Positions 11,777 through 64,000 are shown, counted from the stretch's first letter. The stretch is DNA of 64,000 nucleotides from Escherichia coli (GCF_001677475.2 NZ_CP015229.1); one strand, 5' to 3'. Numbers and translations are program-made. The notes: generated by a model from the letters alone, not told the origin.

Positions 11777-11806
11777 CTAGAGCTCAGGCTTTAGAAGGAG
11801 TTAACC

Positions 11807-12121
11807 ATGCTTACCGTAATCGCAGAAATCCGTACTCGTCCTGGTCAACATCACCGTCAGGCGGTATTGGATCAGTTTGCTAAAATCGTTCCAACCGTAC
11901 TGAAGGAAGAAGGTTGCCACGGCTATGCGCCGATGGTGGATTGCGCTGCTGGCGTGAGTTTCCAGTCTATGGCGCCGGACTCTATCGTGATGATTGAGCA
12001 GTGGGAAAGCATCGCGCATCTTGAAGCGCACTTGCAGACCCCGCACATGAAAGCGTACAGCGAGGCCGTAAAAGGCGATGTGCTGGAGATGAATATCCGC
12101 ATCCTGCAACCGGGGATTTAA
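11807..12121 (+). CDS. ygiN: Quinol monooxygenase YgiN (ABM domain)
   Basis: 104 aa; follows mdaB with RBS GGAG. Confidence 0.8.
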   Translation: MLTVIAEIRTRPGQHHRQAVLDQFAKIVPTVLKEEGCHGYAPMVDCAAGVSFQSMAPDSIVMIEQWESIAHLEAHLQTPHMKAYSEAVKGDVLEMNIRILQPGI

Positions 12122-12165
12122 CATTCCTGAAAAGAGGCCGGTGTTGCTACCGGCCTCAGGTCAGA

Positions 12166-13997: not shown

Positions 13998-14007
13998 ATA
14001 ACTCCCA

Positions 14008-16037: not shown

Positions 16038-16843
16038 ACTTTTTCTACACCACGAAACGGCATGAAGAACGGCTTTCCCGTCAGAGGATTTATTGATGCG
16101 TGAACATCAACGTCAAAGACAGCTTTTACCAGCTCAGGCGTGCAATGCTCCCCCTCATTCAACACACGCACCACTTTCCCCTGGCGTAAAAATATCAACG
16201 TATCGCCATAATTGACGGCAAAATTCAGATCATGCAACACCACGACGACTGTACGCCCGTGATGACGCGTTAAGTCATGTAATAACTCAAGAATTTCAAC
16301 CTGATAACGTAAATCAAGCCAGGTTGTGGGTTCATCCAGCAGGATATAAGGCGTCTTTTGCGCCAACACCATCGCAATCCAGCAACGCTGGCGCTGCCCA
16401 CCAGAGAGTTTTTCAACCGGTAAATGTGCAAACTCCTGCGTACCGGTTAATTTCAGGGCCTCTTCTACCGCCTGCTCGTCGGCGTCGCTCCATTGACGTA
16501 TGAAATTTTGCCAGGGAAAACGCCCACGCGACACCAGTTCATAAACGGTTAAGCCCTCCGGCAATAATGGCGACTGCGGCAAGATCCCAAGTCTACGGGA
16601 TAACGCTTTCGTTGGTTGCTCGTGAATCGCTTTACCATCCAGCAATATAGAGCCGCCCATAGGCTGCAAGATACGTGCAATGGTGCTGAGCAACGTCGAC
16701 TTTCCACAGCCGTTTGCCCCAACCAGAACGGTCATTTTTTCTGTGGGAACGGAGAAAGAAACACCATCAACAATGATCTTCTTGTGATACCCGGCAGAAA
16801 CATTGTCGAGGATCAGCCCCTGCCCTTTTGCGTTATGTGCCAC
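16034..16843 (-). CDS. ABC transporter ATP-binding protein (FecE-like)
   Basis: 269 aa; Walker A GANGCGKST, signature LSGGQRQR, Walker B ILLDEP. Confidence 0.8.
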   Translation of the reverse strand: MAHNAKGQGLILDNVSAGYHKKIIVDGVSFSVPTEKMTVLVGANGCGKSTLLSTIARILQPMGGSILLDGKAIHEQPTKALSRRLGILPQSPLLPEGLTVYELVSRGRFPWQNFIRQWSDADEQAVEEALKLTGTQEFAHLPVEKLSGGQRQRCWIAMVLAQKTPYILLDEPTTWLDLRYQVEILELLHDLTRHHGRTVVVVLHDLNFAVNYGDTLIFLRQGKVVRVLNEGEHCTPELVKAVFDVDVHASINPLTGKPFFMPFRGVEKV

Positions 16844-17216
16844 GTGTACGCCAACTTAATCAAAGACAAACAAAAATAAAACTCATTCTCTTTTGAGAGT
16901 TTGACGCCACAAAATGTAGTAGTCAAGAAGTTAAAATCCATACAAAAACAAGGTAAATAACAGGTGAAATATTTTTAAAGATAAAAATAAAATCATTAAA
17001 TATTAATAAATTACCATCAATTAAATTGCATTAACCTCTCATAAAAACACATGTAGCAATTTTTTGTTATTTCTCATTTACTACTACATTACCGCATGGT
17101 TGAATGATTCTCAATTACATATCCGATGGTGAAATAACAAACGGATAGTGCTTAGTGAGCAACAAGAAACAATTTTCACTCACGACAATCCGTGAGTTTT
17201 TGGGATAACAGACTAA

Positions 17217-19358: not shown

Positions 19359-19359
19359 T

Positions 19360-19400
19360 CAAAAAAGCCCGGTATACACTTGTATACCGGGCTATGTTTT
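19360..19400. terminator. Bidirectional hairpin terminator between receptor gene and parE
   Basis: Stem-loop AGCCCGGTATACACTTGTATACCGGGCT flanked by A-run and T-rich run. Confidence 0.55.
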
Positions 19401-19421
19401 ATTCTTCTGGCGGGAGGATTA

Positions 19422-21317
<1,896 letters not shown>

Positions 21318-21342
21318 TTAAGTTAGCAATTCGAGTTGATCG

Positions 21343-21924
21343 TCAGAGATGGTGCAGACCAAGAAAATCGACGATCGGGTTGAAATAATCTTCGAAGCCC
21401 GTGAATGCGTGGTTGCCGCCTTCTATGACAGTCTGGCGGCAGGAAGCGTAGTACGCCACCGCCTGGCGGTAATCCAGCACTTCATCTCCCGTCTGTTGCA
21501 GCAGCCAGATCAAATCCGGCGCTTCCAGCGGGTCAATCTGCATGACTTTGAGATCGTAAATATGGCGTGACTCTAGCACATATTGCTGCCCGGTGTAGGG
21601 GTTCTCGTTCTGACCGAGATAGTCCGTCAGCAGTTCAAACGGGCGTACCGCCGGGTTTACCACCACTGCGGGCAGCATAAAACATTGCGACAACCAGGTG
21701 GCGTAATATCCCCCCAGTGACGAACCGACAATACCCAGCGAATCGCCGCCATGTTCCAGGACAATGGATTCCAGCAGTTCTGCCGCGTCGGAAGGATACG
21801 GCGGCAACTGCGGAATGATCATCTCTACGTCAGGGTGATGTTCCGCCAACCAGTTTTTTAACAAGCTCGCTTTTGCAGAGCGCGGCGAGCTGTTGAAACC
21901 GTGTAAATAAAGAAGCGTAGACAT
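21343..21924 (-). CDS. yqiA: Esterase YqiA (alpha/beta hydrolase)
   Basis: 193 aa; GSSLGG nucleophile elbow; conserved parE-yqiA-cpdA order. Confidence 0.8.
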
Positions 21925-22751
21925 CAGTAGCCTTCTGAAGCGGTATCAGGTTGGAAACGTGTGTCCGCCAGGCGATGCACCTCGGTGGTCAGCGTGCCAT
22001 CAGCATGTAACTCGAGAGTACGCCAGCCGGGCGCGATGGTGTCCAGCGTAAAGTTGGAACAGTGCGGCTTAAACTGCACACAGGTCGACGGTGTTGCCAG
22101 CAGGCGGCGACCGTTCCAGTCGAGATCCAGCTCCTGATGAATATGACCGCACAGCAAGTATTTGACGTGCGGAAACTTCGCCAGCACGGTATCCAGTTCG
22201 CCCGCATTACGCAGGCTGTGTTGGTCAAGCCAACTACAACCCGCAGGTAGCGGATGATGATGCAGCAGCAGCAACGTATGGCGTTCTGGCGCATCGGCCA
22301 GTTTACGTTCCAGCCACTCAAGCTGAAACTCGCTCAGCTCACCGTGCGGCACGCCAAACACCTGGCTATCCAGCAACAGGATTTGCCATTGCTCACCAAT
22401 AAACACCCGCTTCGCCGGGGAGATACCCGCATCCTGTAACGCGCTGTACATCGCGGGCTGGAAATCGTGGTTGCCCGGCAGCCAGACGCAGGGCGCACGA
22501 AAACTTGCGATGCCTTCAGCGAAATGCTGATAGGCCGCAGAGGATTGATCCTGCGCTAAATCACCTGTCGCGACAATCAGGTCGAATTCGTGCTGGTGTG
22601 GCCGAATCGCCTCCAGCACCGCCTGGTAGCTTTCCCAGGTGTTTACCCCTAACAGGGCTTCGTGCTTTTGCGCAAACAGGTGAGTGTCGGTAATTTGTAA
22701 AATCCTGACTCTGGCCTCACCAGCCAGAGGAAGGGTTAACAGGCTTTCCAA
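21924..22751 (-). CDS. cpdA: 3',5'-cyclic AMP phosphodiesterase
   Basis: 275 aa metallophosphoesterase (GDLAQD, GNHD motifs). Confidence 0.85.
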
Positions 22752-22775
22752 ATGGTGTCCTTAGGTTTCACGACG

Positions 22776-23198
22776 CTAGTAAACCGGAATCGCCATCGCT
22801 CCATGTGCTAAACAGTATCGCAACCAGTCCGCTAGAAACTGATTAATTTGATGCTTTTCGTCGCGTTGATGCAACTTTTTATTAGGATAATCATACCGCG
22901 CTTTGAAGCGAAAAATCTGCTGGCTTGAACACACTTCAGCCACCATCGCGTCATGATACAGACGCACCGTCATTGACGGAAGGCTCCAGTAACTGATAGC
23001 GGGCGCAGTCTGTTCTATTGTCACCAGGGTAGTGTATCGGGTCGATTCCACAATCGTTAGCCGATATTGTGCGTTTGCCACCTGATAGCTTACAGTTTCG
23101 CCGGGTGCGTCATTGCGCGGCAACAAACGGCGCAATTGTGAAAAGTTCATCTCGCACAGGCGCATCATTTCAGGAAAGTCAGGTGTGTAACGCTTCAT
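22776..23198 (-). CDS. yqiB: DUF1249 protein YqiB
   Basis: 140 aa; conserved position. Confidence 0.7.
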
Positions 23199-23828
23199 TT
23201 ATGCCCACTCATTTTTTAACGCTTGATGATGCAGCTGCAGCCATTGCAAAGCGATGACCGACGCTGCGTTGTCGATTTTCCCCTCTTCTACCCACTGGTA
23301 TGCCTGTTCCCGGCTTACCACATGAACGCGAATATCTTCGTTTTCATCAGCCAGACCGTGAATACCGCTTGCGGTCGTGGCGTCCACTTCGCCCACCATA
23401 ATTGACGAACGCTCACTGGTGCCCCCCGGGCTTGCCAGGAAACTTAACACCGGTTTGGTCCGTTTGACTATCAGTCCCGCCTCTTCAATCGCTTCGCGAC
23501 GGGCAACATCTTCCACACTTTCACCCTCTTCAATCATCCCGGCAACCATCTCCAGTAGCCAGGGGGTTTCGCTGGTGTCGTACGCGGCAATCCGAATCTG
23601 CTCAATCAGCACAACTTCATCACGCACTGGGTCAAAGGGTAGCAAGACTGCGGCGTGACCGCGCTCAAAAATTTCCCGCCGTACCTCATGACTCATTTGC
23701 CCGTTGAATAGACGATGACGAAATCTATAAAGATCTAATGAAAAAAAGCCGCGATAAAGTGTTTCTCGTGCAATAATTTCTACATCGTTTTTGCCAAATG
23801 TAACGGGCAGGTTGTCTGGCTTAAGCAT
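23199..23828 (-). CDS. nudF: ADP-ribose pyrophosphatase (Nudix)
   Basis: 209 aa; Nudix box ([22 protein letters not shown]). Confidence 0.85.
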
Positions 23829-24032
23829 TGTTAATGTCCTGGCACTAATAGTGAATTAAATGTGAATTTCAGCAACGTTTGACTGCCGTTTGAGCAGTCA
23901 TGTGTTAAATTGAGGCACATTAACGCCCTATGGCACGTAACGCCAACCTTTTGCGGTAGCGGCTTCTGCTAGAATCCGCAATAATTTTACAGTTTGATCG
24001 CGCTAAATACTGCTTCACCACAAGGAATGCAA

Positions 24033-25514
24033 ATGAAGAAATTGCTCCCCATTCTTATCGGCCTGAGCCTTTCTGGGTTCAGTTCGTTGAGCCAGGCCGA
24101 GAACCTGATGCAAGTTTATCAGCAAGCACGCCTTAGTAACCCGGAATTGCGTAAGTCTGCCGCCGATCGTGATGCTGCCTTTGAAAAAATTAATGAAGCG
24201 CGCAGTCCATTACTGCCACAGCTAGGTTTAGGTGCAGATTACACCTATAGCAACGGCTACCGCGACGCGAACGGCATCAACTCTAACGCGACCAGTGCGT
24301 CCCTGCAGTTAACTCAATCCATTTTTGATATGTCGAAATGGCGTGCGTTAACGCTGCAGGAAAAAGCAGCAGGGATTCAGGACGTCACGTATCAGACCGA
24401 TCAGCAAACCTTGATCCTCAACACCGCGACCGCTTATTTCAACGTGTTGAATGCTATTGACGTTCTTTCCTATACACAGGCGCAAAAAGAAGCGATCTAC
24501 CGTCAATTAGATCAAACCACCCAACGTTTTAACGTGGGCCTGGTAGCGATCACCGACGTGCAGAATGCCCGCGCACAGTACGATACCGTGCTGGCGAACG
24601 AAGTGACCGCACGTAATAACCTTGATAACGCGGTAGAGCAGCTGCGCCAGATCACCGGTAACTACTATCCGGAACTGGCGGCGCTGAATGTCGAAAACTT
24701 TAAAACCGACAAACCGCAGCCGGTTAACGCGCTGCTGAAAGAAGCCGAAAAACGCAACCTGTCGCTGTTACAGGCACGCTTGAGCCAGGACCTGGCGCGC
24801 GAGCAAATTCGCCAGGCGCAGGATGGTCACTTACCGACTCTGGATTTAACGGCTTCTACCGGGATTTCTGACACCTCTTATAGCGGTTCGAAAACCCGTG
24901 GTGCCGCTGGTACCCAGTATGACGATAGCAATATGGGCCAGAACAAAGTTGGCCTGAGCTTCTCGCTGCCGATTTATCAGGGCGGAATGGTTAACTCGCA
25001 GGTGAAACAGGCACAGTACAACTTTGTTGGTGCCAGCGAGCAACTGGAAAGCGCGCATCGTAGCGTCGTGCAAACCGTACGTTCCTCCTTCAACAACATT
25101 AATGCTTCTATCAGTAGTATTAACGCCTACAAACAAGCCGTAGTTTCCGCTCAAAGCTCATTAGACGCGATGGAAGCGGGCTACTCGGTCGGTACGCGTA
25201 CCATTGTTGATGTGTTGGATGCGACCACCACGCTGTACAACGCCAAGCAAGAGCTGGCGAATGCGCGTTATAACTACCTGATTAATCAGCTGAATATTAA
25301 GTCAGCCCTGGGTACGTTGAACGAGCAGGATCTGCTGGCACTGAACAATGCGCTGAGCAAACCGGTTTCCACTAACCCGGAAAACGTTGCCCCGCAAACG
25401 CCGGAACAGAATGCTATTGCTGATGGTTATGCACCTGATAGCCCGGCACCCGTCGTTCAGCAAACATCCGCACGCACTACCACCAGTAACGGTCATAACC
25501 CTTTCCGTAACTGA
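24033..25514 (+). CDS. tolC: Outer-membrane channel TolC
   Basis: ORF 23994-25514; start at ATG 24033 (MKKLLPILIGLSLSGFSSLSQA signal peptide). Confidence 0.95.
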   Translation: MKKLLPILIGLSLSGFSSLSQAENLMQVYQQARLSNPELRKSAADRDAAFEKINEARSPLLPQLGLGADYTYSNGYRDANGINSNATSASLQLTQSIFDMSKWRALTLQEKAAGIQDVTYQTDQQTLILNTATAYFNVLNAIDVLSYTQAQKEAIYRQLDQTTQRFNVGLVAITDVQNARAQYDTVLANEVTARNNLDNAVEQLRQITGNYYPELAALNVENFKTDKPQPVNALLKEAEKRNLSLLQARLSQDLAREQIRQAQDGHLPTLDLTASTGISDTSYSGSKTRGAAGTQYDDSNMGQNKVGLSFSLPIYQGGMVNSQVKQAQYNFVGASEQLESAHRSVVQTVRSSFNNINASISSINAYKQAVVSAQSSLDAMEAGYSVGTRTIVDVLDATTTLYNAKQELANARYNYLINQLNIKSALGTLNEQDLLALNNALSKPVSTNPENVAPQTPEQNAIADGYAPDSPAPVVQQTSARTTTSNGHNPFRN

Positions 25515-54351: not shown

Positions 54352-54475
54352 ATTTACTCCTTTCTAACATCACCAGGAAAAGTATAACGAATTGAAAATA
54401 CATTGTTTATAAAAACAGCAGGCGCGCGGTAATGGCTGGATTGCGACACGGAGTTACTTTATAATCCGCTACCAT

Positions 54476-54551
54476 GGCCCCTTAGCTCAGTGGTTAGAGC
54501 AGGCGACTCATAATCGCTTGGTCGCTGGTTCAAGTCCAGCAGGGGCCACCA
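54476..54551 (+). tRNA. ileX: tRNA-Ile2 (anticodon CAU, lysidine-modified), ileX-type
   Basis: 76-nt cloverleaf GGCCCCTTAGCTCAGTGGTTAGAGCAGGCGACTCATAATCGC...GGGGCCACCA with CAT anticodon and encoded CCA; differs from both Met tRNAs. Confidence 0.85.
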
Positions 54552-54765
54552 GATTTCAATGAATTACAGATGTATCCAAACTATCTTGCTTTACCAGGAT
54601 ACTTATAGGATACCTCTGAGAAGTATTAACAAGTAAGAATTGGCTCATGCCTACAGAACAGTTGGGTCGTAGCAGCCGTTCACCTGCGAACAAGAAAGTG
54701 CTACGGGTCTGAACTTTTGCCCCCAACTCTCCAAGAGACCGGCAAAAACCCTGACGGAGGTATCA

Positions 54766-54909
54766 ATGGATACTTTAAGAAAGGGCTCAGACCTGCTGTC
54801 TGCACGTGTGATTGCCGTTACAGGTTTAATCGCAGCACTTGGCAATTTAGGTCTATGCCCAATAGCCGTAGTGCTAGTATGTATAGCTTTAGTTATCATG
54901 CTGAAGTAA
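54766..54909 (+). CDS. Candidate 47-aa small membrane peptide (MDTLRKGSDLLSARVIAVTGLIAALGNLGLCPIAVVLVCIALVIMLK)
   Basis: ATG preceded by GGAGG at correct spacing; followed by GGCCCAGCtttcGCTGGGCC hairpin; rare codons (TTA, AGA, CTA, ATA); below the ORF-track size cutoff. Confidence 0.35.
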   Translation: MDTLRKGSDLLSARVIAVTGLIAALGNLGLCPIAVVLVCIALVIMLK

Positions 54910-55652
54910 TGACAGCGTAACAAGCTCGGCCCAGCTTTCGCTGGGCCTCCCATTTCTACCTCCCAAAATCTATTAGAAACAATAAGCCACTAAAGAAAGA
55001 GCTTTTGCTGGCTACAATACTCACATACAAACAATTTTTATTTTTCGCGGGCGTAAAAAAACGATGGGGCTGGCAGTCCGGAAGACGTCAGGGTACAGAG
55101 ATTTGTACCCGCCTCTCCCTGTGCATGAGCACAATAAGTAACCGAAGGCGGAATTCCGCCCTCGGTACTCACATATGAGAAACGATATTTCTTCCACCGA
55201 TACCCTTTATTTGGGTATCGCGAGTAAGCCCCAAAATCTGGGTGTTACTCTTACTACCCAAACTACGGGTAGTTTCCGTAGTTTCATGGTCGAGTTGCAG
55301 ATCTGCAACTCACCCACCAGCCAACGCAATTTTGCGTTATCGGGAATATCAGCAAGTTACCGCCGCAGTCGTTCCGGCTTCTTCCACTGGTAAGTATTTT
55401 TCGCGCTCTCCCTCCGTTGTTGAGAACGGCGACGGTATGCCAGCAACTCAAGGACTCTGATCCGTATGTCGCGCATATCCACGCCGTTAAGCTCGATACC
55501 GTCACGGCGCATCATCTCTGCCACCACACGCGCGTAATTTTCGGCTATCACGCTGTCCGGCTGCGTGGCCTCCTATTTGCTTGATGGTTGTTTGATTCCG
55601 GTAACGCGGCGGATTAATCCCAGCAATTCAGATTCTGTCATAGTGCGCTACG

Positions 55653-55992
55653 TTACTTGTCTTTATTCGGCTGCAACTTATCCGGCACATTTCCGGTAGT
55701 TTCCATCAGGTAATCAGCCAGTATCTGTGGGAGGTTGTCGGCAACTCTGGCACTGGCATTACAGGCTTTAACCACTTCCCTTTTAAGCCCATCCAGCATA
55801 GCGGGGGTAATGTGTGGGAAGCTCCTTTGCATAGTAAGCGGGAGGCTGTCCATGATTGATGAAATCTGACTCGCCAGTTTTGAAAGCGCGTACATGCAAA
55901 ACTCTGTATCAATCACGTCACCGCGATCGCGCTCGTTTTTAAGTTCCTGCGCCTCCGCCTGTGCTGTCAGTAATCTGATCCTGACTCGTAAG
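55653..55992 (-). pseudogene. Nu1-like small terminase subunit, C-terminal fragment (gene split by IS insertion)
   Basis: Translation ...LLTAQAEAQELKNERDRGDVIDTEFCMYALSKLASQISSIMDSLPLTMQRSF... resembles the lambda Nu1 C-terminal half; frame is open up to the IS boundary. Confidence 0.7.
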
Positions 55993-56085
55993 TATGAGAC
56001 GACAATAACTCAGTCCGCCTGGCGCCGATTATTCTGGCCGGTTTTGTAACCTGAGTGTCATTTACATGATCCAACAGGAAATGGC

Positions 56086-57465
56086 GTGACGCTCAATACT
56101 TCTCAGGTCAGTTACTATATGACTCAGCGTAAGAAAGGTATAACTCAGCATATCTCGGCCATGAAGGCTGGTATCTCAGTCCGTTCTGGTCGTCGGATCG
56201 AAAAAGGAGAGTGGGCAAAAAACAGTGTTCGGCACTGGCGCACACGCAAAGATCCTCTGGAAGCTGTGTGGGACAGCATGCTTGTTCCTCTGTTGAAAGA
56301 GAGGCCGGCTCTGACACCAACAACTCTACTGGAGATGCTACAGGATAAATATCCCGGCCAGTACCCCAACAGCCTTCGAAGAACAATGCAACGGCGGGTT
56401 CGCGAATGGAAACTACAGTATGGTACAGAGCAGGAGGTCATGTTCCGCCAGCAACATCAGCCCGGCCTGCGAGGCCTGTCGGACTTTACTGAACTGAAAG
56501 GTGTAGTTGTCACCATCGCCGGTAAGTTGTTGGCGCATAAGTTGTATCACTTCCGTCTGGAATGGAGCCACTGGAGCTGGATGCGGGTTGTTCTGGGTGG
56601 TGAGAGCTTCTCTGCTCTGGCTGAAGGCCTGCAGGAAGCCCTCGGACAACTGGGCGGAGTGCCGGTAGAACATAAAACGGACAGCCTGAGGGCAGCATGG
56701 AAACAACAGGGCGAAGATGGACGCCGCGAGCTGACTGAGCGTTATGCTACTCTCTGTCAGCACTACGGAATGCAGGGCGTACACAATAATGCCGGTCGGG
56801 GCCACGAAAATGGCTCGGTTGAAAGTGCCCACGGACATCTGAAAAGGCGTATCTGTCAGGCGCTGATACTGCGGGGCAGTAACGACTTCAGCACCATAGA
56901 AGAATATCAGGCCTTCATCACTCAGCAGGTTATGCGGCACAACCGTAACAATCAGGATCTGGTCAAGGAAGAACGTCTTCATCTGAAACCGCTGCCGCTT
57001 CGTCGCAGTGCTGACTATGATGAGCTGACTGTGAGGGTTAGTCGCAGCAGTACCATCAATGTGAAGCACGTCGTCTACAGCGTACCTTCCCGGCTTGTAG
57101 GTCAACTGTTACGGGTCAGGTTATGGGACGATCGTCTGAGCTGTTACGTTGGCAGCAGCGAGGTCATGAGCTGCCCTCGCGTCAGACCAGAAAAAGGGAA
57201 GACGCGGGCCCGTCGTATCGACTTCCGACATGTGATCGACAGTCTGGCAAAAAAGCCCGGTGCGTTCTGCCATGCAACGCTGAGAAATGACATCCTGCCG
57301 GACGATGAATGGCGGAGGCTGTGGCGTCGCTTATGTAATCATCTGGAGCCCGATATGGCAGGAAGGCTGATGGTACATGCCGGGAAACGTGGATCTGCAC
57401 CGGCTGATGCGCTTCCTGGGTATAAAAGAAAAGGCGTTGCCGGTAGTCAATGTGATACAGCATAA
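56086..57465 (+). CDS. istA: IS21-family transposase IstA
   Basis: 459-aa ORF (GTG 56086; ATG at 56119 also possible); N-terminal HTH-like region and DDE-type catalytic core typical of IstA. Confidence 0.8.
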   Translation: MTLNTSQVSYYMTQRKKGITQHISAMKAGISVRSGRRIEKGEWAKNSVRHWRTRKDPLEAVWDSMLVPLLKERPALTPTTLLEMLQDKYPGQYPNSLRRTMQRRVREWKLQYGTEQEVMFRQQHQPGLRGLSDFTELKGVVVTIAGKLLAHKLYHFRLEWSHWSWMRVVLGGESFSALAEGLQEALGQLGGVPVEHKTDSLRAAWKQQGEDGRRELTERYATLCQHYGMQGVHNNAGRGHENGSVESAHGHLKRRICQALILRGSNDFSTIEEYQAFITQQVMRHNRNNQDLVKEERLHLKPLPLRRSADYDELTVRVSRSSTINVKHVVYSVPSRLVGQLLRVRLWDDRLSCYVGSSEVMSCPRVRPEKGKTRARRIDFRHVIDSLAKKPGAFCHATLRNDILPDDEWRRLWRRLCNHLEPDMAGRLMVHAGKRGSAPADALPGYKRKGVAGSQCDTA

Positions 57466-57510
57466 CCTGAGCAGTTATGAGCAACTACTGCGTGGCAAGG
57501 GAGGTTCGCA

Positions 57511-58266
57511 GTGAGCAATATCCATCACCTTGAACATAGCCTGCGTAAACTACGCCTGACACGAGTTGGAGCTGAATGGCACGCTCTGGAAAAACGAGCG
57601 CTGGCAGAAGGCTGGACACCATCGCGCTATCTTCTGACGCTATGCAATGAAGAACTCCTGTGGCGCGAGAGTGAAAAACTGCGTCGTTATAAAAAGGAGG
57701 CCCGGTTGCCAGTTGCCAAAACGCTGAGCGAATACGACTTCAGTCAGGTGCCGGAACTGAATGGAGCTCAGTTCCGGCAACTCTGTGAAACGACAGACTG
57801 GGTTGATGCAGGAGAAAACGTTCTGCTGTTCGGAGCCAGCGGGTTGGGGAAAAGCCATCTGGCGGCAGCGATCGTGGATGGCGTAGTAGGTCAGGGCTAC
57901 CGGGCCCGGTTCTACAGCGCAGGAGAGCTGTTGCAGGAACTACGTAAAGCCAGAGCTCAGTTGAAACTGAATGAGCTGCTACTGAAACTGGATCGCTACC
58001 GGGTGATAGTGGTGGATGATCTTGGCTATGTCAAACGCGATAGTGCCGAAACGGGTGTGCTGTTCGAGTTAATAGCGCATCGCTATGAACGTGGGAGCCT
58101 GGTGATAACCAGTAACCATCCGTTCAGCATGTGGGGCAGCATCTTCGTGGATGAGACTATGGCGGTGGCTGCGGCAGACAGGCTGATCCATCACGGATAT
58201 ATGTTCGAACTGAAAGGGGAAAGCTACAGGAAAAAGACAGCGAAGGCAGTAACAAGCGCGACTTGA
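57511..58266 (+). CDS. istB: IS21-family helper ATPase IstB
   Basis: 251 aa; Walker A FGASGLGKSHLA and Walker B VIVVDDLGY; GTG start with GGAGG RBS. Confidence 0.85.
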   Translation: MSNIHHLEHSLRKLRLTRVGAEWHALEKRALAEGWTPSRYLLTLCNEELLWRESEKLRRYKKEARLPVAKTLSEYDFSQVPELNGAQFRQLCETTDWVDAGENVLLFGASGLGKSHLAAAIVDGVVGQGYRARFYSAGELLQELRKARAQLKLNELLLKLDRYRVIVVDDLGYVKRDSAETGVLFELIAHRYERGSLVITSNHPFSMWGSIFVDETMAVAAADRLIHHGYMFELKGESYRKKTAKAVTSAT

Positions 58267-58331
58267 TGTCGCCCTGAAGGGTGCGGCCAGTATAGTTGGC
58301 GCGAGTCGGCAAAACTAGTTGACGTCTAATA

Positions 58332-58544
58332 TCGTAAGAGTTCATCATCATCAATCTCGCCTTTGTCGTTTGTAAGCTGGCTAATTGCATTGTTAACCCT
58401 ATTGTCTATCACGCTGGCAACATCATAAAACGCCTCACGGCCTTTACGTTCAACGGGAGTCACTCCCCACTTGTCGAATGCTGTAGCACTTACCCGGCAG
58501 CTTTGCGCCATGGTTTTTTTGTTCATCAGGTGCGATTTCATCAA
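58332..58544 (-). pseudogene. Nu1-like small terminase subunit, N-terminal fragment (gene split by IS insertion)
   Basis: MNKKTMAQSCRVSATAFDKWGVTPVERKGREAFYDVASVI... resembles lambda Nu1 N-terminal winged-helix region; frame runs into the IS and stops two codons inside it. Confidence 0.7.
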
Positions 58545-58639
58545 TATCCCAACTTGGTCAAGGTTTCAGGTTGGTGTGTTGGTGTTATCTTTCCCTTTTT
58601 ATTCATGGAGATAGAGCAAACAACAAAACCACCACCACC

Positions 58640-58725
58640 CCCCTGAAAAAGCTCATAAATAGCGAAAAACCGCGAGGTCGCCGCCCCGTAACGGGTCCAT
58701 ATGCCGGAAAGGACCCGTAAAAAAA
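58640..58725 (-). other. Lambda-type cos site (cosQ-cosN-cosB); cosN 12-nt cohesive-end sequence at 58675-58686
   Basis: Reverse strand reads ACGGGTCCTTTCCGGCATATGGACCCGTTACG-GGGCGGCGACCT-CGCGGTTTTTCGCTATTTATGAGC, near-identical to the lambda cos region as recalled; lies immediately upstream of the Nu1-like gene as in lambda. Confidence 0.7.
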
Positions 58726-58741
58726 GCCGGATTTCTCCGGC
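58719..58741 (-). terminator. Rho-independent terminator after the capsid operon
   Basis: Reverse strand stem GGCCGGAGAAATCCGGC followed by TTTTTTT. Confidence 0.5.
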
Positions 58742-58747
58742 CTTGTC

Positions 58748-59161
58748 TCAGATGGTTTTCAGTATGCGATCGATGTCGCCATCATCGCCCGGGTTTCTGC
58801 CAGCGTATGCCATACCAGCTGATACGGCTTTCGGGCTGTGCATGTCCATAAAGTTTTCAAAGGCTGCGGTAAGCTCTGGTGCAACCTTCTGGCGTTCCTG
58901 CTCTATGGTCATGCTAAGGATGCTTTTAGCCGTACCAACATCGATACAAGGCACGTTTGCCATTGCACGTAACAGCGGCTGATAGTCGCCAGATTCATCA
59001 AGCGCCATAATCGCATCAGAGCGCGGCTTGTCCTTCTCTTCCAGGCTGTTAAGTTGATATACGGCCTCGTAGGTTGATAAACCTCTGTCAGCCATTGCCC
59101 GCGCTTCGGCCTTAAATTTACTCGCCAGCGGTAGCGTCATGATGCTTTCATTCGTTGCCAT
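58748..59161 (-). CDS. Hypothetical 137-aa protein, last gene of the capsid operon
   Basis: Tightly packed 12 nt downstream of the D-like gene; no family recognised. Confidence 0.5.
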   Translation of the reverse strand: MATNESIMTLPLASKFKAEARAMADRGLSTYEAVYQLNSLEEKDKPRSDAIMALDESGDYQPLLRAMANVPCIDVGTAKSILSMTIEQERQKVAPELTAAFENFMDMHSPKAVSAGMAYAGRNPGDDGDIDRILKTI

Positions 59162-59173
59162 CGTTCCCTCTGC

Positions 59174-59509
59174 TTATCGGGCCAGTGGCTGAACGGATAC
59201 GCCAGAACCCGCAAAGGCGGCGCATTTTTTCGCATCGGTGTCGACGCTCTCAGGCCAGTTAACGGCGGCGATATTAAATATCCCCGTCTTATAGCACTGT
59301 GCTGATTTCTGCGTCGACGTGTCAACGGGGTACGAGGTCAGATAAACAGCCTTGCCAGATTCCTGACCATCCCACGGCTTAAACTCGCCATTTTCCGCCA
59401 GCATCAGCGGGGTAAATTCCTGAATAACTCCAGCATCAGCGGCAAAATGTACCAGCGTCGTGGATACCTGCTGACTGCCTGCAAATAACTCAATGTATGG
59501 AGTGTTCAT
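59174..59509 (-). CDS. Head decoration protein, lambda gpD-like
   Basis: 111 aa; shared blocks with lambda D as recalled (TPLML, WDG, YKxGxF, WPE, KKxAAFAG); size matches (lambda D 110 aa). Confidence 0.7.
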   Translation of the reverse strand: MNTPYIELFAGSQQVSTTLVHFAADAGVIQEFTPLMLAENGEFKPWDGQESGKAVYLTSYPVDTSTQKSAQCYKTGIFNIAAVNWPESVDTDAKKCAAFAGSGVSVQPLAR

Positions 59510-59520
59510 AGAATCCCCCG

Positions 59521-60576
59521 TTAAGCAATTTTGACGGTAACAAATTTGCGAATATCTGCCGGTACCGGCTGCGGTGCGCTGTGCGTCTGCACGTACTCAA
59601 TCGCCGGATCGCCATCCTCAATCCAGTTTTTCGGGTAGTACATGTTTTGCGTTGCGCCAGTTCTTACCGCTTCCGGATCCATAATCGCACCATAGGCCAC
59701 CAGCCCTTTATTGTTAGTGTTGCCCAGGACAAGCAAATCAGGCTCAAGGAAATATTTTTCGGTGCCATCGCTGTCGGTGTATTTGCCGGAATAGACGATA
59801 AGGGCCAGATCACCCAGATAGCCTTTAAAGCTCACCACTTCGCCCAGGTTTTTACAGGCCAGCTCTGCGGCGGATTCTGAACCACGGGAAAGATCGTACA
59901 GTTCACGGAATTTTTTAAAGCTGCGTAACGTGCGCCATACCTCAGCGCCCATAATCATGACGTTGGCGGGGCAACCAGCCTGATCGGTGTATAGTTCGAT
60001 GTCATAGATTGGATCGTGTGTTTCCTTATCTGCCTCAGACCACTTTTTGCCCGATCCCTGCGTAATGATGTTTTTAGTCGGGATTTTCCAGTCGATTTCG
60101 TATCTATTTATTCCTTCGCCCTCAATGATGTTTTTTCCGGTCGTGACCGCATTCACCGCCAGCCATTCTATGCGAGCTTTAATAGCGTTTACCTGGCGGC
60201 GCATGTTGCCAGTAATCAGGCGCATACGGCGATAAGTTGGATCGTTAAGCTGTGCCGGATCTTCTCCAGCCATGCGCATGATGGTTTTTGATGGATCGAT
60301 TTCGTGTTTTGGTTTCATATAGCCAGGGCGGATAGTGCTTGTTTCGTACCCTTTATCGCGCTGAACCTGACTCCCCACCATAGGCGAACAAAAAGCCGAC
60401 ATGGTGACTTCTTCAATATCCAGGGTATCTAACATGATGTCCTGCGTGTTGAAGGTTGCCACGTTCGGGAAAAACAGCGACGTAAACAGCGGACTGAATT
60501 TAAATTCCGAAATATCCCCACGATTCAGGTACGCGAAAAGCTGGTTAGTGTTAAGTGCCGTTGCTTTGCCTGTCAT
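59521..60576 (-). CDS. Major capsid protein, lambda gpE-like
   Basis: 351 aa; blocks FKFSPLFTSLFF and PGYMKPKHEIDP, YPKNWIEDGDPA, SAPQP match lambda E motifs (FKFDPLFLRLFF, PGYVKPKHEVNP, YPKNWVTTGDPA, SAPLM) as recalled; similar length. Confidence 0.85.
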   Translation of the reverse strand: MTGKATALNTNQLFAYLNRGDISEFKFSPLFTSLFFPNVATFNTQDIMLDTLDIEEVTMSAFCSPMVGSQVQRDKGYETSTIRPGYMKPKHEIDPSKTIMRMAGEDPAQLNDPTYRRMRLITGNMRRQVNAIKARIEWLAVNAVTTGKNIIEGEGINRYEIDWKIPTKNIITQGSGKKWSEADKETHDPIYDIELYTDQAGCPANVMIMGAEVWRTLRSFKKFRELYDLSRGSESAAELACKNLGEVVSFKGYLGDLALIVYSGKYTDSDGTEKYFLEPDLLVLGNTNNKGLVAYGAIMDPEAVRTGATQNMYYPKNWIEDGDPAIEYVQTHSAPQPVPADIRKFVTVKIA

Positions 60577-60782
60577 TATTCACCCCCATGAGTCTGATTC
60601 ATGCCCAGCGCCGCGCGTAAATAGGCGCGTACCTGCCAGCCTGTTGACGGCTCAACCATCGCCAGCGGCTCAAGTCCTGCCGCAATGCCTGCTTTTACGT
60701 TCTGCTGGTGGCGTTCCTTGAGCGCCTCCACGATGTCTGGGCTTATGTAAACTGTCACCCCGCCTTTTTTCTCTTCTGCCAT
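60576..60782 (-). CDS. Hypothetical 68-aa protein, first gene of the capsid operon, translationally coupled to the capsid gene
   Basis: ORF 60576-60815 from GTG; better start at internal ATG (MAEEKKGG) with AGAGGA RBS; stop TAA overlaps capsid ATG by 1 nt. Confidence 0.45.
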   Translation of the reverse strand: MAEEKKGGVTVYISPDIVEALKERHQQNVKAGIAAGLEPLAMVEPSTGWQVRAYLRAALGMNQTHGGE

Positions 60783-60820
60783 AGTCGGAAATTCCTCTTT
60801 GACGTTAAAAATCACAACTG

Positions 60821-60852
60821 GATGTTCATCCAGTTGTGATTATAATCATGAT
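60821..60852. promoter_or_regulatory. Perfect 14-bp-arm palindrome upstream of the capsid operon (candidate operator; contains CTG-N10-CAG)
   Basis: AATCACAACTGGATG-TTCA-TCCAGTTGTGATT about 40-70 bp upstream of the operon start. Confidence 0.4.
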
Positions 60853-60993
60853 TTCATTTTACGCAATAATGTTGAGTTGTGTTGCAAATTGTGAAATGAT
60901 TTCCGGCAACAGTAGTCACCATACTGTTAGATAAAAGCCTCATATGCAAAAGCCCGATAAGACCCTCTGACCTTATCGGGCTTTTTTTGGGGC

Positions 60994-61018
60994 ATAAAAA
61001 AGCCGGACTTCTCCGGCT
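60994..61018 (-). terminator. Rho-independent terminator after the SSB-like gene
   Basis: Reverse strand AGCCGGAGAAGTCCGGCT followed by TTTTTT; adjacent second hairpin (60952-60988) with T-run on the + strand. Confidence 0.5.
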
Positions 61019-61033
61019 TCTGTTACTCGTTGC

Positions 61034-61456
61034 TTAAAACGGTATGTTATCCCCGTACGGATCATCGTTACCCGCCTGTTGTTTTGCCCTGTTCAGTGCG
61101 TCAGTAGCCTGCCCTTGCTGGCCTTTTTTGCCGCCCGGTCGCGCCGTTCTCGCACTGATTACGCTGTCTGCGATAACCTGCCAGCCCTGCCGCGTTTCGC
61201 CGTTCTGGCCTGTCCACTGGCTTACCTGCATGTTACCCGCCACGCTCACCAGTTCGCCTTTGTGGTGTTTTGCCAGTGCGTCGGCCTGTCTGCCAAACGC
61301 CAGGACGGATAACCACATCGTCGCCGTTCCGTCATCTGCCTGGCTGCACGGAAGGGGGACCGCCATACTAGCCATCGTCATTTGTGTACCCTTGCTGGTG
61401 GTCTTTAACTGCGGGTCAGCCACCAGCCGCCCGTAAGCCGCTATCTGTGCTGTCAT
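61034..61456 (-). CDS. SSB-like single-stranded-DNA-binding protein (divergent OB fold with conserved acidic C-terminal tail)
   Basis: 140 aa; Gly/Gln-rich linker and C-terminus DDPYGDNIPF resembling the SSB tail (DFDDDIPF). Confidence 0.55.
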   Translation of the reverse strand: MTAQIAAYGRLVADPQLKTTSKGTQMTMASMAVPLPCSQADDGTATMWLSVLAFGRQADALAKHHKGELVSVAGNMQVSQWTGQNGETRQGWQVIADSVISARTARPGGKKGQQGQATDALNRAKQQAGNDDPYGDNIPF

Positions 61457-61698
61457 GCTGTCTGCTCTCCGGTTTTAACGTTGATGGTTGTCACCTGTTC
61501 CGCTTCGGCAATCTCCCGTTCTGTCAGCGTGGCAAAGTTTGCAGCTGCCGTTGTCATGAATGCGCTAATCAGTTCGGGATGTGCTTTCGCATATCCTTCC
61601 CCGGCGTTGCGGTCGATGATTTTTATCGACACCCTTAACCAGTGTTCCGTCAAATCAAGGGCGTGCGATTGTGATTTTTTTGTGTGCTTCGCTGTCAT
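61453..61698 (-). CDS. Hypothetical 81-aa protein, 4-nt overlap with the SSB-like gene
   Basis: ORF begins just downstream of the iteron array and overlaps the SSB-like start; no family recognised. Confidence 0.4.
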   Translation of the reverse strand: MTAKHTKKSQSHALDLTEHWLRVSIKIIDRNAGEGYAKAHPELISAFMTTAAANFATLTEREIAEAEQVTTINVKTGEQTA

Positions 61699-61740
61699 AG
61701 GCTTTATCTCACAGCAGTAAATTAAAATTTTTGCGTTTTA

Positions 61741-61980
61741 ACCCTTCACCTGTTCACCTTTTGATATTTTCCATTTAAATTCATACTGTTAAGGGGTGAA
61801 CAGTTTCACAAAAACTATTCACCAACTGTTCACCACTGTTCACCCTTGAAGCTCAATAAACAACCAAAAAGGTGAACAGTGAATAGTTTGGTGAATAGTT
61901 CATAAATAACTGTTCACCCTATAATATACTGATATAAAAGATATTTATGACAGGGTGAACAGTGGTGAACAGTTATTCCA
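61741..61980. repeat. Iteron array: at least 8 perfect copies of TGTTCACC (both orientations) plus degenerate copies; candidate replication origin
   Basis: Direct reading: CCTGTTCACC, GGGGTGAACAGT, ACTGTTCACCACTGTTCACCC, AGGTGAACAGT, ACTGTTCACCC, GGGTGAACAGTGGTGAACAGT in AT-rich context between the helicase and SSB genes. Confidence 0.75.
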
Positions 61981-61985
61981 TAAGT

Positions 61986-63818
61986 TTAATTTTTGCTATC
62001 GTCATTAGTGACTGATACACATGATGGCATCCAGTCTTCTGATTCCTCCGTCAGTGTCACGTTTGAACGTAAACCGTGCTTCGTTTTCCGTTTTATATAC
62101 TCCCTGCCATATTCCGCCATTGCCCCAGGCATATCTTTACCGAAGCGCGTCAGTGTTACAGGTTTACCAAACCCATGAGCCCTCATATAAGCCAGATAGG
62201 CATGATAGAGATACCTGCGCGGGCTGAATGGCACAATTTCAGCATTACCCACTAACAGGCCATCACACATTACCGACGCCATGAGATAGCCGCAGAAGTC
62301 CACCAGCGAATCCCCCTCTCGCTTTATCGCCAGTGCTTCTTCAGATTTCTGCTGCTCATATAACAGGCGTCTGGCTTCGTCCTGGTCAGCAAACCTTGTA
62401 AGCAGATGGCGAATCACTACCGCCAGCTCACCTTCTATTTTTTCCGCCAGCATCGGATCGCGTTCGTTCTCCGGTACAACTTCCGAAAAATTGAATATCA
62501 CCCGACGACGTGAGATCCCCCCGCTGCGGTCACTGAATGACATGGCGTTATTGTTAACCGCCAGCACTACTGCCGGAATACGCGTTGAGTAGGGGGCTTT
62601 GTGTTTCGGGTCAATTGCCACCTTGTCACCGCCTGTAATGGCCTTAATTCCTGCCCCATCACCAGCGTAGCGGGTCATATCCGGCATGATAATCAGCGAA
62701 AAGCCAACCACTAACGCGCGTTCCCTTGCATCTTCCAGCGCCTTCATGCTTGCCGATACTGTGTTGGCCTTACCCGCCAGCATGGTGCAAATCTCCGCCA
62801 TCACGCTTTTACCACTTCCCCCTGGACCTGTTACCTCAATGAATAACTGCCAGTCGTACCGGTTCGCCAGCACCATGAATAATGCAGCCAGTACGCGATC
62901 CGCCTTGCGGTCATTCTCAGCCACCGAACGGCGTAACCACTTCCAGAAATTCGGCGCATGTGTTGCCAGCGTTTCCCCCTCTGCTGGTGGGCTGAAAGGT
63001 AATTCACTGGCAATTAACAACCAGTCGTTTTTGTTATGCTCCCGAAAATTACCTGTTCTGGTATCAAATACCCCGTTACTGAATCCAATCAGGTTACGGG
63101 CTGTATTCCCCATTACAGGCAAACTTAACTTCATGGTATCGACCGCCGATTTAATGGCGTTCTGCGAATAGCTGATCTCCGCATCAATGAAAATCTGCGC
63201 CATAGCACGCTGTAACTCTTTATCCTGAACCGGCTCCCATACAACGCCGTTGTAATGGTGAACAGTGTCAGAGTCAGCATGAATCGCCAGTTCACCGCCA
63301 TAATGTGCCAGGAGAACTTCGCCGCGTTGACTTGCTCCCATCTGGTTAAGCGCCAGTGATGAAGCGTTATCGTCTTTTACCCGCTCTTTTTTCTTTACAG
63401 GCAGTTCAACTACCTTTTTCTTTTCCGCCAGCTCTGCCCGTTCACGTTCCAGATATTCGCGCCAGTTCTCCCGTTTCTGGCTGTGCATTCCTTCAGGATA
63501 ATAATCAGCATCCCTGACACCTGCCGCTGCCAGTTTCTGCCCGATGGTATTAACAAGCCCCGGACGCAATAACCCCGCCTGGTAGAGACGCACACGATAG
63601 CGTCCGTCCGGTACGATTTGCAGGTTGTCCAGTTCGGCAAGTTGTTGCTCTCCAAGCCAGACAGGAGGCACGTTATCGCCAGCCAGTCGCCCGTCCTGTT
63701 CCTGCCACTGCTTCGCATGTGCCCACGCATCACTACCCGCAAAAATGATGACTTCCGTCATTTTGTCACGTGGCTGGTGTTTTAAATTTGGCGCTTTTTT
63801 CATTTCTGCTCTCTCCAC
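61986..63818 (-). CDS. Replication initiator/helicase, SF3 (D5-like) family, P4 alpha-type
   Basis: 610 aa; Walker A GPGGSGKS in a D5/SF3-helicase-like core; sits next to the iteron array; start may be at a downstream Met. Confidence 0.75.
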   Translation of the reverse strand: MERAEMKKAPNLKHQPRDKMTEVIIFAGSDAWAHAKQWQEQDGRLAGDNVPPVWLGEQQLAELDNLQIVPDGRYRVRLYQAGLLRPGLVNTIGQKLAAAGVRDADYYPEGMHSQKRENWREYLERERAELAEKKKVVELPVKKKERVKDDNASSLALNQMGASQRGEVLLAHYGGELAIHADSDTVHHYNGVVWEPVQDKELQRAMAQIFIDAEISYSQNAIKSAVDTMKLSLPVMGNTARNLIGFSNGVFDTRTGNFREHNKNDWLLIASELPFSPPAEGETLATHAPNFWKWLRRSVAENDRKADRVLAALFMVLANRYDWQLFIEVTGPGGSGKSVMAEICTMLAGKANTVSASMKALEDARERALVVGFSLIIMPDMTRYAGDGAGIKAITGGDKVAIDPKHKAPYSTRIPAVVLAVNNNAMSFSDRSGGISRRRVIFNFSEVVPENERDPMLAEKIEGELAVVIRHLLTRFADQDEARRLLYEQQKSEEALAIKREGDSLVDFCGYLMASVMCDGLLVGNAEIVPFSPRRYLYHAYLAYMRAHGFGKPVTLTRFGKDMPGAMAEYGREYIKRKTKHGLRSNVTLTEESEDWMPSCVSVTNDDSKN

Positions 63819-64000
63819 GCGGCAATCATGTTTTTCAGTTCCTGTAGTTTTTTATCAACATCCATACATGACACATGGTTATTTCTGGAAGGCGGGATTT
63901 CCCGCCGGAATCTGCAAATAAAGATCTCCACGTTCAGCGAGCTATGAAATGAATAGCCATCACGAATAAAATACACACGGTCAAACATTATCGATTTTAC

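Follow-up and report, generated by a model that had tools for sequence, protein, structure and literature searches.

What occupies the 9.4 kb that follow the tRNA-Ile2 gene (54552-64000) in a 64,000-nucleotide stretch of Escherichia coli DNA (the window, at its full length), and is it a satellite of a new kind? The first-pass annotation read this segment as a helper-dependent satellite in which P4-type replication is combined with lambda-type capsid and packaging determinants, and could not place the combination in any described family. The helper-dependent reading is borne out by synteny with EcCICFT073, the prototype Gram-negative PICI (Fillol-Salom 2018), and by a closely related island in strain TUM1886. 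The claim of novelty fails, since the same architecture is found in EcCICFT073 (PMC6092414) and in the Type A PICI (PMC10085698). The segment very probably represents 9.4 kb, on the tRNA side, of a classical Gram-negative PICI of the EcCICFT073 type, inserted in ileX. The satellite family to which it is thus assigned is already described (the classical E. coli PICIs, typified by EcCICFT073), and the gene combination is not new; in this copy, ISEc10 splits the satellite's own packaging gene, terS.

The insertion site is the tRNA-Ile2 gene (ileX, CAT anticodon; 54476..54551, plus strand), located by ARAGORN and Rfam; ARAGORN labels it tRNA-Met (CAT), and the identical gene is annotated as tRNA-Ile in RefSeq. 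The attL core (54506-54553) consists of the last 46 bp of the tRNA and 2 bp beyond, and is repeated with 100% identity, as a 48-bp attR, just past the integrase gene of the TUM1886 island (positions 20326-20373 of the extract taken from that genome). The latter island (NZ_CP128970, 744-756 kb) also lies in ileX, has the same att site, TerS, capsid block and replicon, is 99.9% identical to the window over 58332-64000, and measures about 11.2 kb between its 48-bp att repeats. Beyond the equivalent of the window's end it carries genes for a DUF4222 protein, an Icd-like protein, an alpA-type HTH protein (extract positions 17663-17872) and a tyrosine integrase (18724-20145), followed by attR. In the window itself attL is the only att site, and the position of alpA, int and attR past base 64000 is deduced from this near-identical relative, which supports the earlier expectation for int and attR. 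Within the 489-bp attL-proximal segment (54552..55040, no strand assigned) lies a hydrophobic ORF of 47 aa that is unannotated (54766-54909, plus strand). The segment is 100% identical in 28 genomes, none of which has a feature annotated there, and is common only to sibling islands at ileX, being absent from TUM1886 and present in a sibling island of the CFSAN064035 type; a PADLOC search of this segment gave no match.

The replication module lies towards the right end of the window. The gene pri-rep (61986..63818, minus strand) encodes a P4 alpha-type primase-family protein with an SF3 helicase (phrog_864 at 6e-192), recognized by the Pfam domains D5_N, DUF5906 (the SF3 core) and Pox_D5 and by TIGR01613 ('P4 family'); the RefSeq start gives a protein of 605 aa, with the gene ending at 63803. 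This protein is 49% identical to the EcCICFT073 primase, and a 473-bp part of its gene matches P4 alpha with 68.8% nucleotide identity. Directly 3' of pri-rep is the replication origin, an iteron array (61751..61971, both strands) with eight exact copies of TGTTCACC, against 1.56 expected in the whole window. Groups of TGTTCACC and degenerate copies alternate with AT-rich stretches, and the GC content is about 0.40. The array matches the Gram-negative PICI origin, described as iteron-bearing, AT-rich and placed immediately 3' of the primase-replicase gene (PMC6092414). Then come genes for an 81-aa conserved PICI protein (61453..61698, minus strand; phrog_1231), 87.5% identical to its CFT073 homologue, and for a single-stranded DNA-binding protein (SSB; 61034..61456, minus strand; phrog_44), 71% identical to that of EcCICFT073. 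On the other side of pri-rep, the 3' part of a DUF4222 gene (63800..64000, minus strand) is cut by the window end, and the island continues beyond it; an ORF there (63800-63988) corresponds to the C-terminal end of the DUF4222 protein of TUM1886.

Next to the replication module stands a block of four genes, all on the minus strand. The first (60576..60782; phrog_3255) encodes a 68-aa protein, 92.6% identical to its CFT073 homologue and with a dN/dS of 0.21. The second (59521..60576; phrog_29 at 5e-110) encodes a lambda E-like major capsid protein (MCP), homologous to c1499, with 43% identity to lambda E (E=4e-93) and 94.3% to the CFT073 protein, a dN/dS of 0.10 and a best phage match of only 47%. 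The third (59174..59509; phrog_49) encodes a lambda D-like head decoration protein, homologous to c1500, with 37% identity to lambda D (E=9e-13) and 95.5% to the CFT073 protein. The fourth product, a 137-aa protein (58748..59161) 94.9% identical to its CFT073 homologue, makes the earlier statement that the island has no scaffold gene doubtful. It has no match in Pfam or NCBIfam, and is a homologue of the C-terminus of the lambdoid scaffold (Nu3/gpC): residues 49-131 match the phage 21 scaffold/Nu3 C-terminus by BLASTP (E=3e-10, 36% over 83 aa), tblastn finds only Nu3/scaffold genes, and the C-terminus of phrog_53 is matched at 1.3e-8. The order of the capsid genes is E then D, whereas that of lambda is D then E, and among 50,697 records no phage protein reaches 50% identity to the products of the capsid and packaging genes. 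The block is present in 597 of 5,426 complete E. coli genomes (about 1 in 9), and its capsid genes are under purifying selection (dN/dS 0.10-0.21); the module is conserved and selected among PICIs. Deletion of c1499 and c1500 in published work affected neither lambda interference nor transfer by the resident prophages, so that the block has no demonstrated role, and EcCICFT073 DNA was found in phage-sized capsids. A capsid block that includes a homologue of a scaffold C-terminus, and that is under purifying selection in roughly one in nine E. coli genomes, may be of interest to specialists.

The packaging region follows. A cos site (58618..58716, minus strand) can be aligned with those of lambda and N15 and with cos1 of EcCICFT073, and the cos region is about 84% identical to lambdoid phage cos regions. 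It comprises a cosQ-like box (58704-58716, minus strand), a cosN whose cohesive-end 12-mer is identical to that of lambda (58675-58686, minus strand), and an island-specific cosB with no evident R2/R1/IHF array. The cosB contains a candidate R3 motif, TTGTTGTTT (58618-58626, minus strand), whose distance from cosN exceeds that in N15 by about 10 bp. Beyond cos, the terS gene is in two pieces. The 5' fragment (58332..58544, minus strand; phrog_57, terminase small subunit) covers codons 1 to about 70 and is 100% identical to residues 1-70 of TUM1886 TerS. The 3' fragment (55653..55992, minus strand) covers about codons 68-180, with 96.5% nucleotide identity to TUM1886 (extract 10231-10571) and 94% amino-acid identity to the C-terminal part of TerS. 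Between them lies ISEc10, of the IS21 family (55993..58331, plus strand; 2.3 kb), with PHROG transposase and IstB-type matches and the genes istA (56086-57465) and istB (57511-58266), both on the plus strand. It is flanked by a 7-bp duplication, TCGTAAG (55986-55992 and 58332-58338), with breakpoints set against the empty site of TUM1886; it is 98-99.7% identical to annotated copies spanning 2410 bp, and has a deletion of roughly 70 bp inside istA, mapped against the CFT073 copy. The first-pass annotation had described a compact block entirely on the minus strand; this orientation is correct for the other visible island genes, but the plus-strand insertion sequence had been missed. On the 3' side of the packaging gene, the homologue of a conserved 93-aa PICI ORF (55357..55641, minus strand) is interrupted at codon 23 by an in-frame TAG, as its translation shows beside the proteins of TUM1886 and a sibling island, and is probably a pseudogene; an ORF of 64 aa survives, with 72% identity to the 93-aa CFT073 protein. 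In TUM1886, unlike this copy, terS and the 93-aa ORF are intact and there is a second, inverted cosN. With terS split by ISEc10, a stop in the adjacent ORF and the second cos missing, the present copy probably has a reduced ability to direct its own packaging.

The intact TerS is a 180-aa protein of the Nu1 family, 36% identical to Nu1 over the full length (to residue 180; E=6e-33). The 5' fragment encodes an N15-type winged-helix DNA-binding domain, 51% identical to N15 gp1 and 26-28% to the lambda or phage 21 proteins. BLASTP gave no match between the island TerS and RppA, and the PDB, RppC included, held no match to it. Rpp proteins lack the TerL-binding C-terminus (PMC9026076); members of that subgroup have 144-153 aa, a wHTH and a dimerisation helix but no TerL-binding region, and the 180-aa TerS falls outside it. 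Judged by sequence, the island belongs to the commoner PICI subgroup, which has a full-length Nu1-family TerS instead of Rpp; terS of the island is present in 767 of the 5,426 genomes (about 14%).

Taken together, the listed components are real: the P4-type primase/SF3 helicase, iterons, SSB, four-gene capsid block, lambda-type cos and Nu1-like terS. Genes for portal, protease, TerL, tail and lysis functions are found neither in the window nor in the complete TUM1886 island, as the first-pass annotation held for the former; at about 11.2 kb, the latter also lies within the size range of classical Gram-negative PICIs, about 10-15 kb. The island fits the five-component Type A PICI of SatelliteFinder (int, alpA, pri-rep, capsid and terS), 97% of which come from E. 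coli (PMC10085698), and for EcCICFT073 a capsid protein (c1499), a decoration protein (c1500) and lambda-like cos sites have been reported (PMC6092414).

Other readings of the locus were weighed against this assignment. That it is a capsid-forming PICI (cfPICI), or a degraded one, building its own small capsids and stealing only tails, would agree with its own MCP, decoration protein, scaffold-like protein and TerS, and with the int, alpA and rep modules common to cfPICIs and PICIs; for example, EcCIEDL933 shares the int/alpA/rep backbone logic and also has its own capsid protein and TerS. However, cfPICIs build small capsids of their own and carry, in addition, genes for portal, protease, head-tail connectors, HNH and TerL; these, with the head-tail adaptor, are absent from the window, TUM1886 and EcCICFT073, while EcCICFT073 DNA travels in phage-sized capsids; this origin is improbable. 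Still less can be said for a previously undescribed family, joining a P4-type replicon to lambda-type capsid and packaging determinants. In its favour, the replicon is similar to P4 alpha and the lambda-like genes stay below 50% identity to phage proteins; but this reading is refuted by the architecture published in 2018 for EcCICFT073, with a capsid block 92-95% identical in protein by direct comparison, as well as by the Type A fit and by presence in 11-14% of complete E. coli genomes. Equally hard to sustain is an ordinary lambdoid prophage that has decayed and lost most of its morphogenesis genes. The lambda-type cos and the Nu1-, E-, D- and Nu3-like genes could be its remains, and the IS insertion and the nonsense mutation are signs of some decay. 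On the other hand, what recurs in hundreds of genomes is a compact, att-bounded island of about 11 kb with identical gene lengths, whose capsid genes have a dN/dS of 0.10-0.21 and an order unlike that of lambda, and which has no phage protein match above 47% identity. Its replicon is of the P4/PICI type and not lambda O/P, and from the lambda-type head-tail-lysis set and O/P region only E-, D-, Nu3-C- and Nu1-like genes were found. A P4-like satellite of P2-type helpers, to which the alpha-like helicase domain (TIGR01613), the size of about 11 kb, tRNA integration, helper cos packaging and the Icd-like gene of TUM1886 might point, can be practically dismissed, because such satellites are defined by the psu-delta-sid operon, epsilon (ash) and a P2-type cos in addition to int, alpA and alpha (PMC10085698), and here psu, delta, sid and epsilon are annotated in none of the window, TUM1886 and EcCICFT073, the cos is lambda-type and not P2/P4-type, and the capsid genes are E/D-type capsid homologues and not an external scaffold.

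If the locus is a PICI of the EcCICFT073 type, a life cycle can be proposed. For EcCICFT073, helper-dependent induction, packaging, high-frequency transfer and interference have been demonstrated with lambda and phi80 (PMC6092414, PMC6739421). By the published biology of the family, a lambdoid cos helper phage would activate the alpA-controlled rightward operon, the integrase would excise the island, and the P4-alpha-type Pri-Rep helicase would fire the iteron origin 3' of its own gene. The resulting concatemers would be cut at cos, of which cosQ and cosN match lambda and cosB is island-specific, and the DNA would be packaged into heads and tails made by the helper. In the most likely mechanism, the island TerS would bind the cosB of the island and thereby offer the lambda-type cosN to the helper TerL. 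Over its last 40 residues the island TerS has only 18-22% identity to the TerS of lambda, phage 21 or N15, so direct binding to the helper TerL is not assured. The N15-like domain and the matching cosB motif provide a directly testable packaging model for a TerS-bearing subgroup that is less dissected in the literature than the Rpp subgroup. Sibling islands at the same att site swap whole capsid, packaging and cos modules, a pattern that suggests they are matched to helpers of different types. We tentatively put forward a joint reading, on balance somewhat doubtful: PICIs of the TerS type may package by a non-Rpp route, in which TerS, through its N15-like domain, binds the R3-like site in a chimeric cos and recruits the helper TerL directly, which would free transfer from any need for the helper's TerS, and the four-gene block may also act with particular helpers. 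Its role there may be, for example, in capsid building or remodelling, or in poisoning helper assembly, and it would escape the EcCICFT073 assays performed with lambda and resident prophages.

Comparison with known systems places these features in context. In the Gram-positive islands SaPI1 and SaPIbov1, likened here by description, the satellite's own TerS turns the helper TerL to satellite DNA (PMC6739421, PMC6092414). SaPIbov5, also likened by description, is a cos SaPI with an MCP homologue, Ccm (PMC6739421, PMC6092414); Ccm leads to small capsids, in contrast to the phage-sized capsids of EcCICFT073, for whose capsid genes no phenotype is known. Phage N15, with gp1 as its TerS and a single-R3 cosB, also has TTGTTGTTT in its R3 region (bp 48-60), but its cosN is GGGCGGCGTCCG, whereas the island has the lambda 12-mer GGGCGGCGACCT; the island also differs from N15 in having no TerL. 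EcCICFT073 differs in its packaging protein (a 144-aa RppA against the 180-aa TerS), in a segment of about 44 bp in cosB, in its integrase (23% identical), in its att site (the roxA-phoQ region against ileX), in its PerC gene, of which the island has none, and in its two cos sites, against the single cos and split terS of this copy. The order of genes is nevertheless the same: int, alpA, the Icd-like gene, DUF4222, P4-type pri-rep, iteron origin, a hypothetical gene and SSB, and then the 68-aa protein, MCP, decoration protein, 137-aa protein, cos, packaging protein and 93-aa ORF, with cosQ and cosN identical between the two islands.

The element that adjoins the tRNA gene in the window is of a known kind: a classical EcCICFT073-type PICI, in a variant that carries a small terminase (TerS) and is integrated at ileX. 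The E. coli rpoD-mug-tRNA backbone is present in the window, and the island (54552-64000 within the window) begins next to its single tRNA gene (54476-54551, CAT anticodon by ARAGORN), which ARAGORN labels Met (CAT) and RefSeq labels, for the identical gene, tRNA-Ile, of the lysidine-modified ileX type. Downstream of the tRNA, the minus strand carries a primase-family/SF3 helicase of 610 aa (61986-63818), an 81-aa ORF, an SSB gene, a capsid block formed by a 68-aa ORF, a major capsid protein (MCP, 351 aa), a decoration protein (111 aa) and a 137-aa ORF, and the 5' part (~70 codons, 58332-58544) of a small-terminase gene. An Rfam scan of the island returned the tRNA alone, besides an artefact below threshold, an antisense 'Plastid-ycf2' match to the tRNA bases, and a promoter and terminator scan gave no more sites than were found in shuffled sequence. 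The helicase has D5_N, DUF5906 and Pox_D5 domains (Pfam) and a P4-family primase C-terminal domain (NCBIfam), and its gene shares 68.8% identity with P4 alpha over ~470 bp. Directly 3' of this gene, in AT-rich surroundings, lies a cluster of the repeat TGTTCACC, with eight of the 10 copies in the window falling within 61751-61971 (1.56 expected over the whole window).

An intact relative is found at ileX in E. coli TUM1886 (NZ_CP128970), which is 99.9% identical to window 58332-64000 and in which the element measures ~11.2 kb. Its order is tRNA-Ile, a 93-aa ORF, terS (543 bp), the 137-aa gene, decoration protein, MCP, the 68-aa gene, SSB, the 81-aa gene and primase, followed by DUF4222, a hypothetical gene, an Icd-like gene, two small divergent ORFs, an alpA-type HTH gene, another hypothetical gene, a tyrosine integrase and the chromosomal nfeF; just beyond the integrase, 48 bp of the tRNA 3' end are repeated without a mismatch. 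Portal, protease, large terminase (TerL), tail and lysis genes, a contiguous set of which the first-pass annotation had regarded as incompatible with a satellite, are all absent from this element. The satellite interpretation of that annotation is right, and its suggestion that int and attR lie outside the window is supported. The readings as a prophage remnant, a cfPICI or a P4-like satellite were rejected.

For the prototype Gram-negative PICI, EcCICFT073, Fillol-Salom et al. (ISME J 2018, PMC6092414) describe c1499, putatively a capsid protein, and c1500, a head decoration protein; this element contains two cosN sequences resembling those of lambda and phi80, and both phages mobilise it (PMC6092414). 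When located in CFT073, it proved to be syntenic with the island gene for gene, with protein identities of 92.6% (68 aa), 94.3% (MCP), 95.5% (decoration), 94.9% (137 aa), 87.5% (81 aa), 71% (SSB) and 49% (primase); the Icd-like proteins of TUM1886 and CFT073, encoded beyond the window end, are 89% identical. The PICI model of SatelliteFinder has five core components, namely integrase, AlpA-type regulator, primase-replicase, capsid morphogenesis and small terminase, and PICIs with all five (Type A) are reportedly 97% from E. coli (PMC10085698). Among 5,426 complete E. coli genomes, the capsid block is present in 597, Nissle 1917 and O157:H7 strains included, the terS of the island in 767, and rppA, which encodes the packaging protein of EcCICFT073, in 97. 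EcCIMP1 represents another PICI lineage, without a capsid/terS module. A new satellite family was rejected on the basis of the synteny with EcCICFT073, the Type A model and the prevalence in E. coli, and the earlier claim that this combination of genes belongs to no described family was mistaken.

The island MCP is 43% identical to lambda E over its full length (E=4e-93), and the decoration protein 37% identical to lambda D over 76 aa (E=9e-13). The nearest phage MCPs among 50,697 records (Gifsy-1 and phage 21) are 47% identical and the closest phage TerS, N15 gp1, 45.5%, which indicates island-specific lineages and not recent captures. Comparison of the alleles of the window with those of CFT073 gave dN/dS values of 0.21 (68 aa), 0.10 (MCP), 0.14 (decoration) and 0.21 (137 aa), so that all four genes of the block are under purifying selection. 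No NCBIfam match was found for TerS, MCP, the decoration protein or the 137-, 68-, 81- and 93-aa proteins, nor any Pfam match for the 137-aa protein even at E<=10, and BLASTP of the latter against lambda Nu3, C, FI, FII and W gave nothing significant. Because a deep protein search with the 137-aa protein returned only homologues from E. coli islands, at 61% identity or more, the set was too shallow for profile building; a three-sequence Nu3 alignment served solely for viewing repeat structure. A tie to scaffolds was seen only with those of the phage-21 type: residues 49-131 align with the end of the phage 21 scaffold (its last ~80 residues, the Nu3/gpC C-terminus; E=3e-10, 36% identity), the C-terminus of a PHROG protease/scaffold family is matched at 1.3e-8, and tblastn against phages matched Nu3/scaffold genes only. 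An identical scaffold C-terminus is encoded by the resident lambdoid prophage of CFT073. Deletion of c1499 or c1500 left both lambda interference and resident-prophage transfer unchanged, and EcCICFT073 DNA was found packaged in phage-sized capsids (PMC6092414). The conserved capsid block is a remaining point of interest. Just upstream of it, where EcCICFT073 has a PerC-family gene, a 32-bp sequence (60810-60841) matches its own reverse complement, as seen from inverted self-hits in the comparisons with TUM1886 and with E. coli A33 (NZ_CP028742); a promoter-like site lies at 60895-60866 (minus strand), and the 32-bp sequence may serve the late operon as an operator or terminator.

The first-pass annotation was right in its individual lambda homology calls (MCP with E, decoration protein with D, TerS with Nu1, and the lambda-type cos site). 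Its block is, though, interrupted by a plus-strand ISEc10 (IS21 family, istA and istB; 55993-58331), and its statement that there is no scaffold needs qualifying in view of the scaffold matches; the observation was largely right, and incomplete in that the IS and the scaffold-like gene were missed. Comparison with the uninterrupted relative places the insertion within terS, of which the 3' part occupies 55653-55992, with a 7-bp duplication, TCGTAAG, on both sides. This ISEc10 copy, at 2339 bp, is shorter than reference copies (2410 bp) through a loss of ~70 bp near the istA 3' end, and its IstA is 459 aa long, where that of the CFT073 copy has 499 aa; the element may have lost the capacity for autonomous transposition. 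In the conserved 93-aa ORF that follows terS (55357-55641, minus strand), codon 23 is an in-frame TAG, and the ORF has one codon more than its homologues; together with the split terS, this suggests that the packaging end is decaying. No complete E. coli genome among the 5,426 shows the same IS-split arrangement of terS, and self-directed packaging is probably impaired in this copy.

TUM1886 lacks the 489 bp adjoining the tRNA (54552-55040), which are 100% identical in 28 genomes. This segment contains an unannotated, strongly hydrophobic 47-aa ORF on the plus strand (54766-54909; MDTLRKGSDLLSARVIAVTGLIAALGNLGLCPIAVVLVCIALVIMLK), followed by a GC-rich hairpin and likewise 100% conserved in the 28 genomes; PADLOC gave no match for small ORFs including this one, nor did Rfam near it, and it could encode a small membrane peptide or toxin. 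One of these genomes, E. coli CFSAN064035 (NZ_CP031134; locus coordinates 13000-24000), harbours an ileX island with the same int/alpA/Icd/DUF4222/primase backbone, 96.5% identical to the window over 54400-55641 and 97.8% over 61723-63988. The place of the lambda-type module is taken by genes for a ClpP-like protease/MCP fusion, for a DUF1441 protein and, on the plus strand, for a HEPN-domain protein, the last possibly defence cargo; the lambda cosN 12-mer was not found in this island. The shared flanks and different middle indicate that ileX islands exchange capsid, packaging and cos modules as units, and such whole-module swapping suggests that islands are matched to different helpers. At ileX in A33 (locus coordinates 9000-24686), two island copies lie in tandem with a degenerate att repeat (87% identity) between them; the annotation marks many of the genes as frameshifted, which may reflect true decay or an error in assembly.

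The intact TerS (180 aa) is 36% identical to Nu1 (E=6e-33, residues 6-166 against 3-180). In the N-terminal DNA-binding part it shares 51% identity with N15 gp1 and only 26-28% with lambda or phage-21-type TerS, its central part is ~50% identical to lambda, phage-21-type and N15 proteins alike, and its last 40 residues are poorly conserved (18-22%). A PDB sequence search gave nothing at E<=0.01, so the protein is not close to RppC or to the Nu1 N-terminal domain, and BLASTP against RppA gave no match. On the minus strand the cos reads GGGTCCTTTCCGG...GTTACGGGGCGGCGACCTCGCGGTTTTTCGCTATTTATGA, essentially the lambda cosQ box, 12-nt cohesive end and right flank, and lambdoid phage cos regions are ~84% identical to it. 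Past the shared cosN flank, TerS-type islands have ~44 bp of cosB that are absent from EcCICFT073; this segment holds TTGTTGTTT (58618-58626), which aligns with GTTGTTGTTT in the left end of N15 (bp 51-60), within the stretch mapped as the R3-N15 site, bp 48-60. We infer a packaging route, the other remaining point of interest, in which the island TerS would bind the candidate site TTGTTGTTT and bring helper TerL to the lambda-type cosN. In the TUM1886 and CFT073 islands a further cosN 12-mer in inverted orientation, the cos2 of the 2018 paper (PMC6092414), is situated past the packaging gene and before the 93-aa ORF (locus coordinates 10041-10052 and 16298-16309, respectively).

Unlike both of these islands, the window has one cosN, the ~250 bp that hold the second being absent near the 55646/55652 junction. 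Relative to N15, the island motif lies ~10 bp farther from cosN. The EcCICFT073 RppA (144 aa) forms a heterodimer with helper TerS and redirects it to the island cosB (PMC6739421), and Murialdo and Feiss argue that, for want of a C-terminal TerL-binding region, Rpps need helper TerS as a bridge (PMC9026076). EcCICFT073 is no longer transferred by a helper from which terS has been deleted. Where the prototype has RppA, the present element has a full-length TerS of the Nu1 family; its integrase shares 23% identity with the EcCICFT073 enzyme, and its att site is ileX and not the roxA-phoQ interval.
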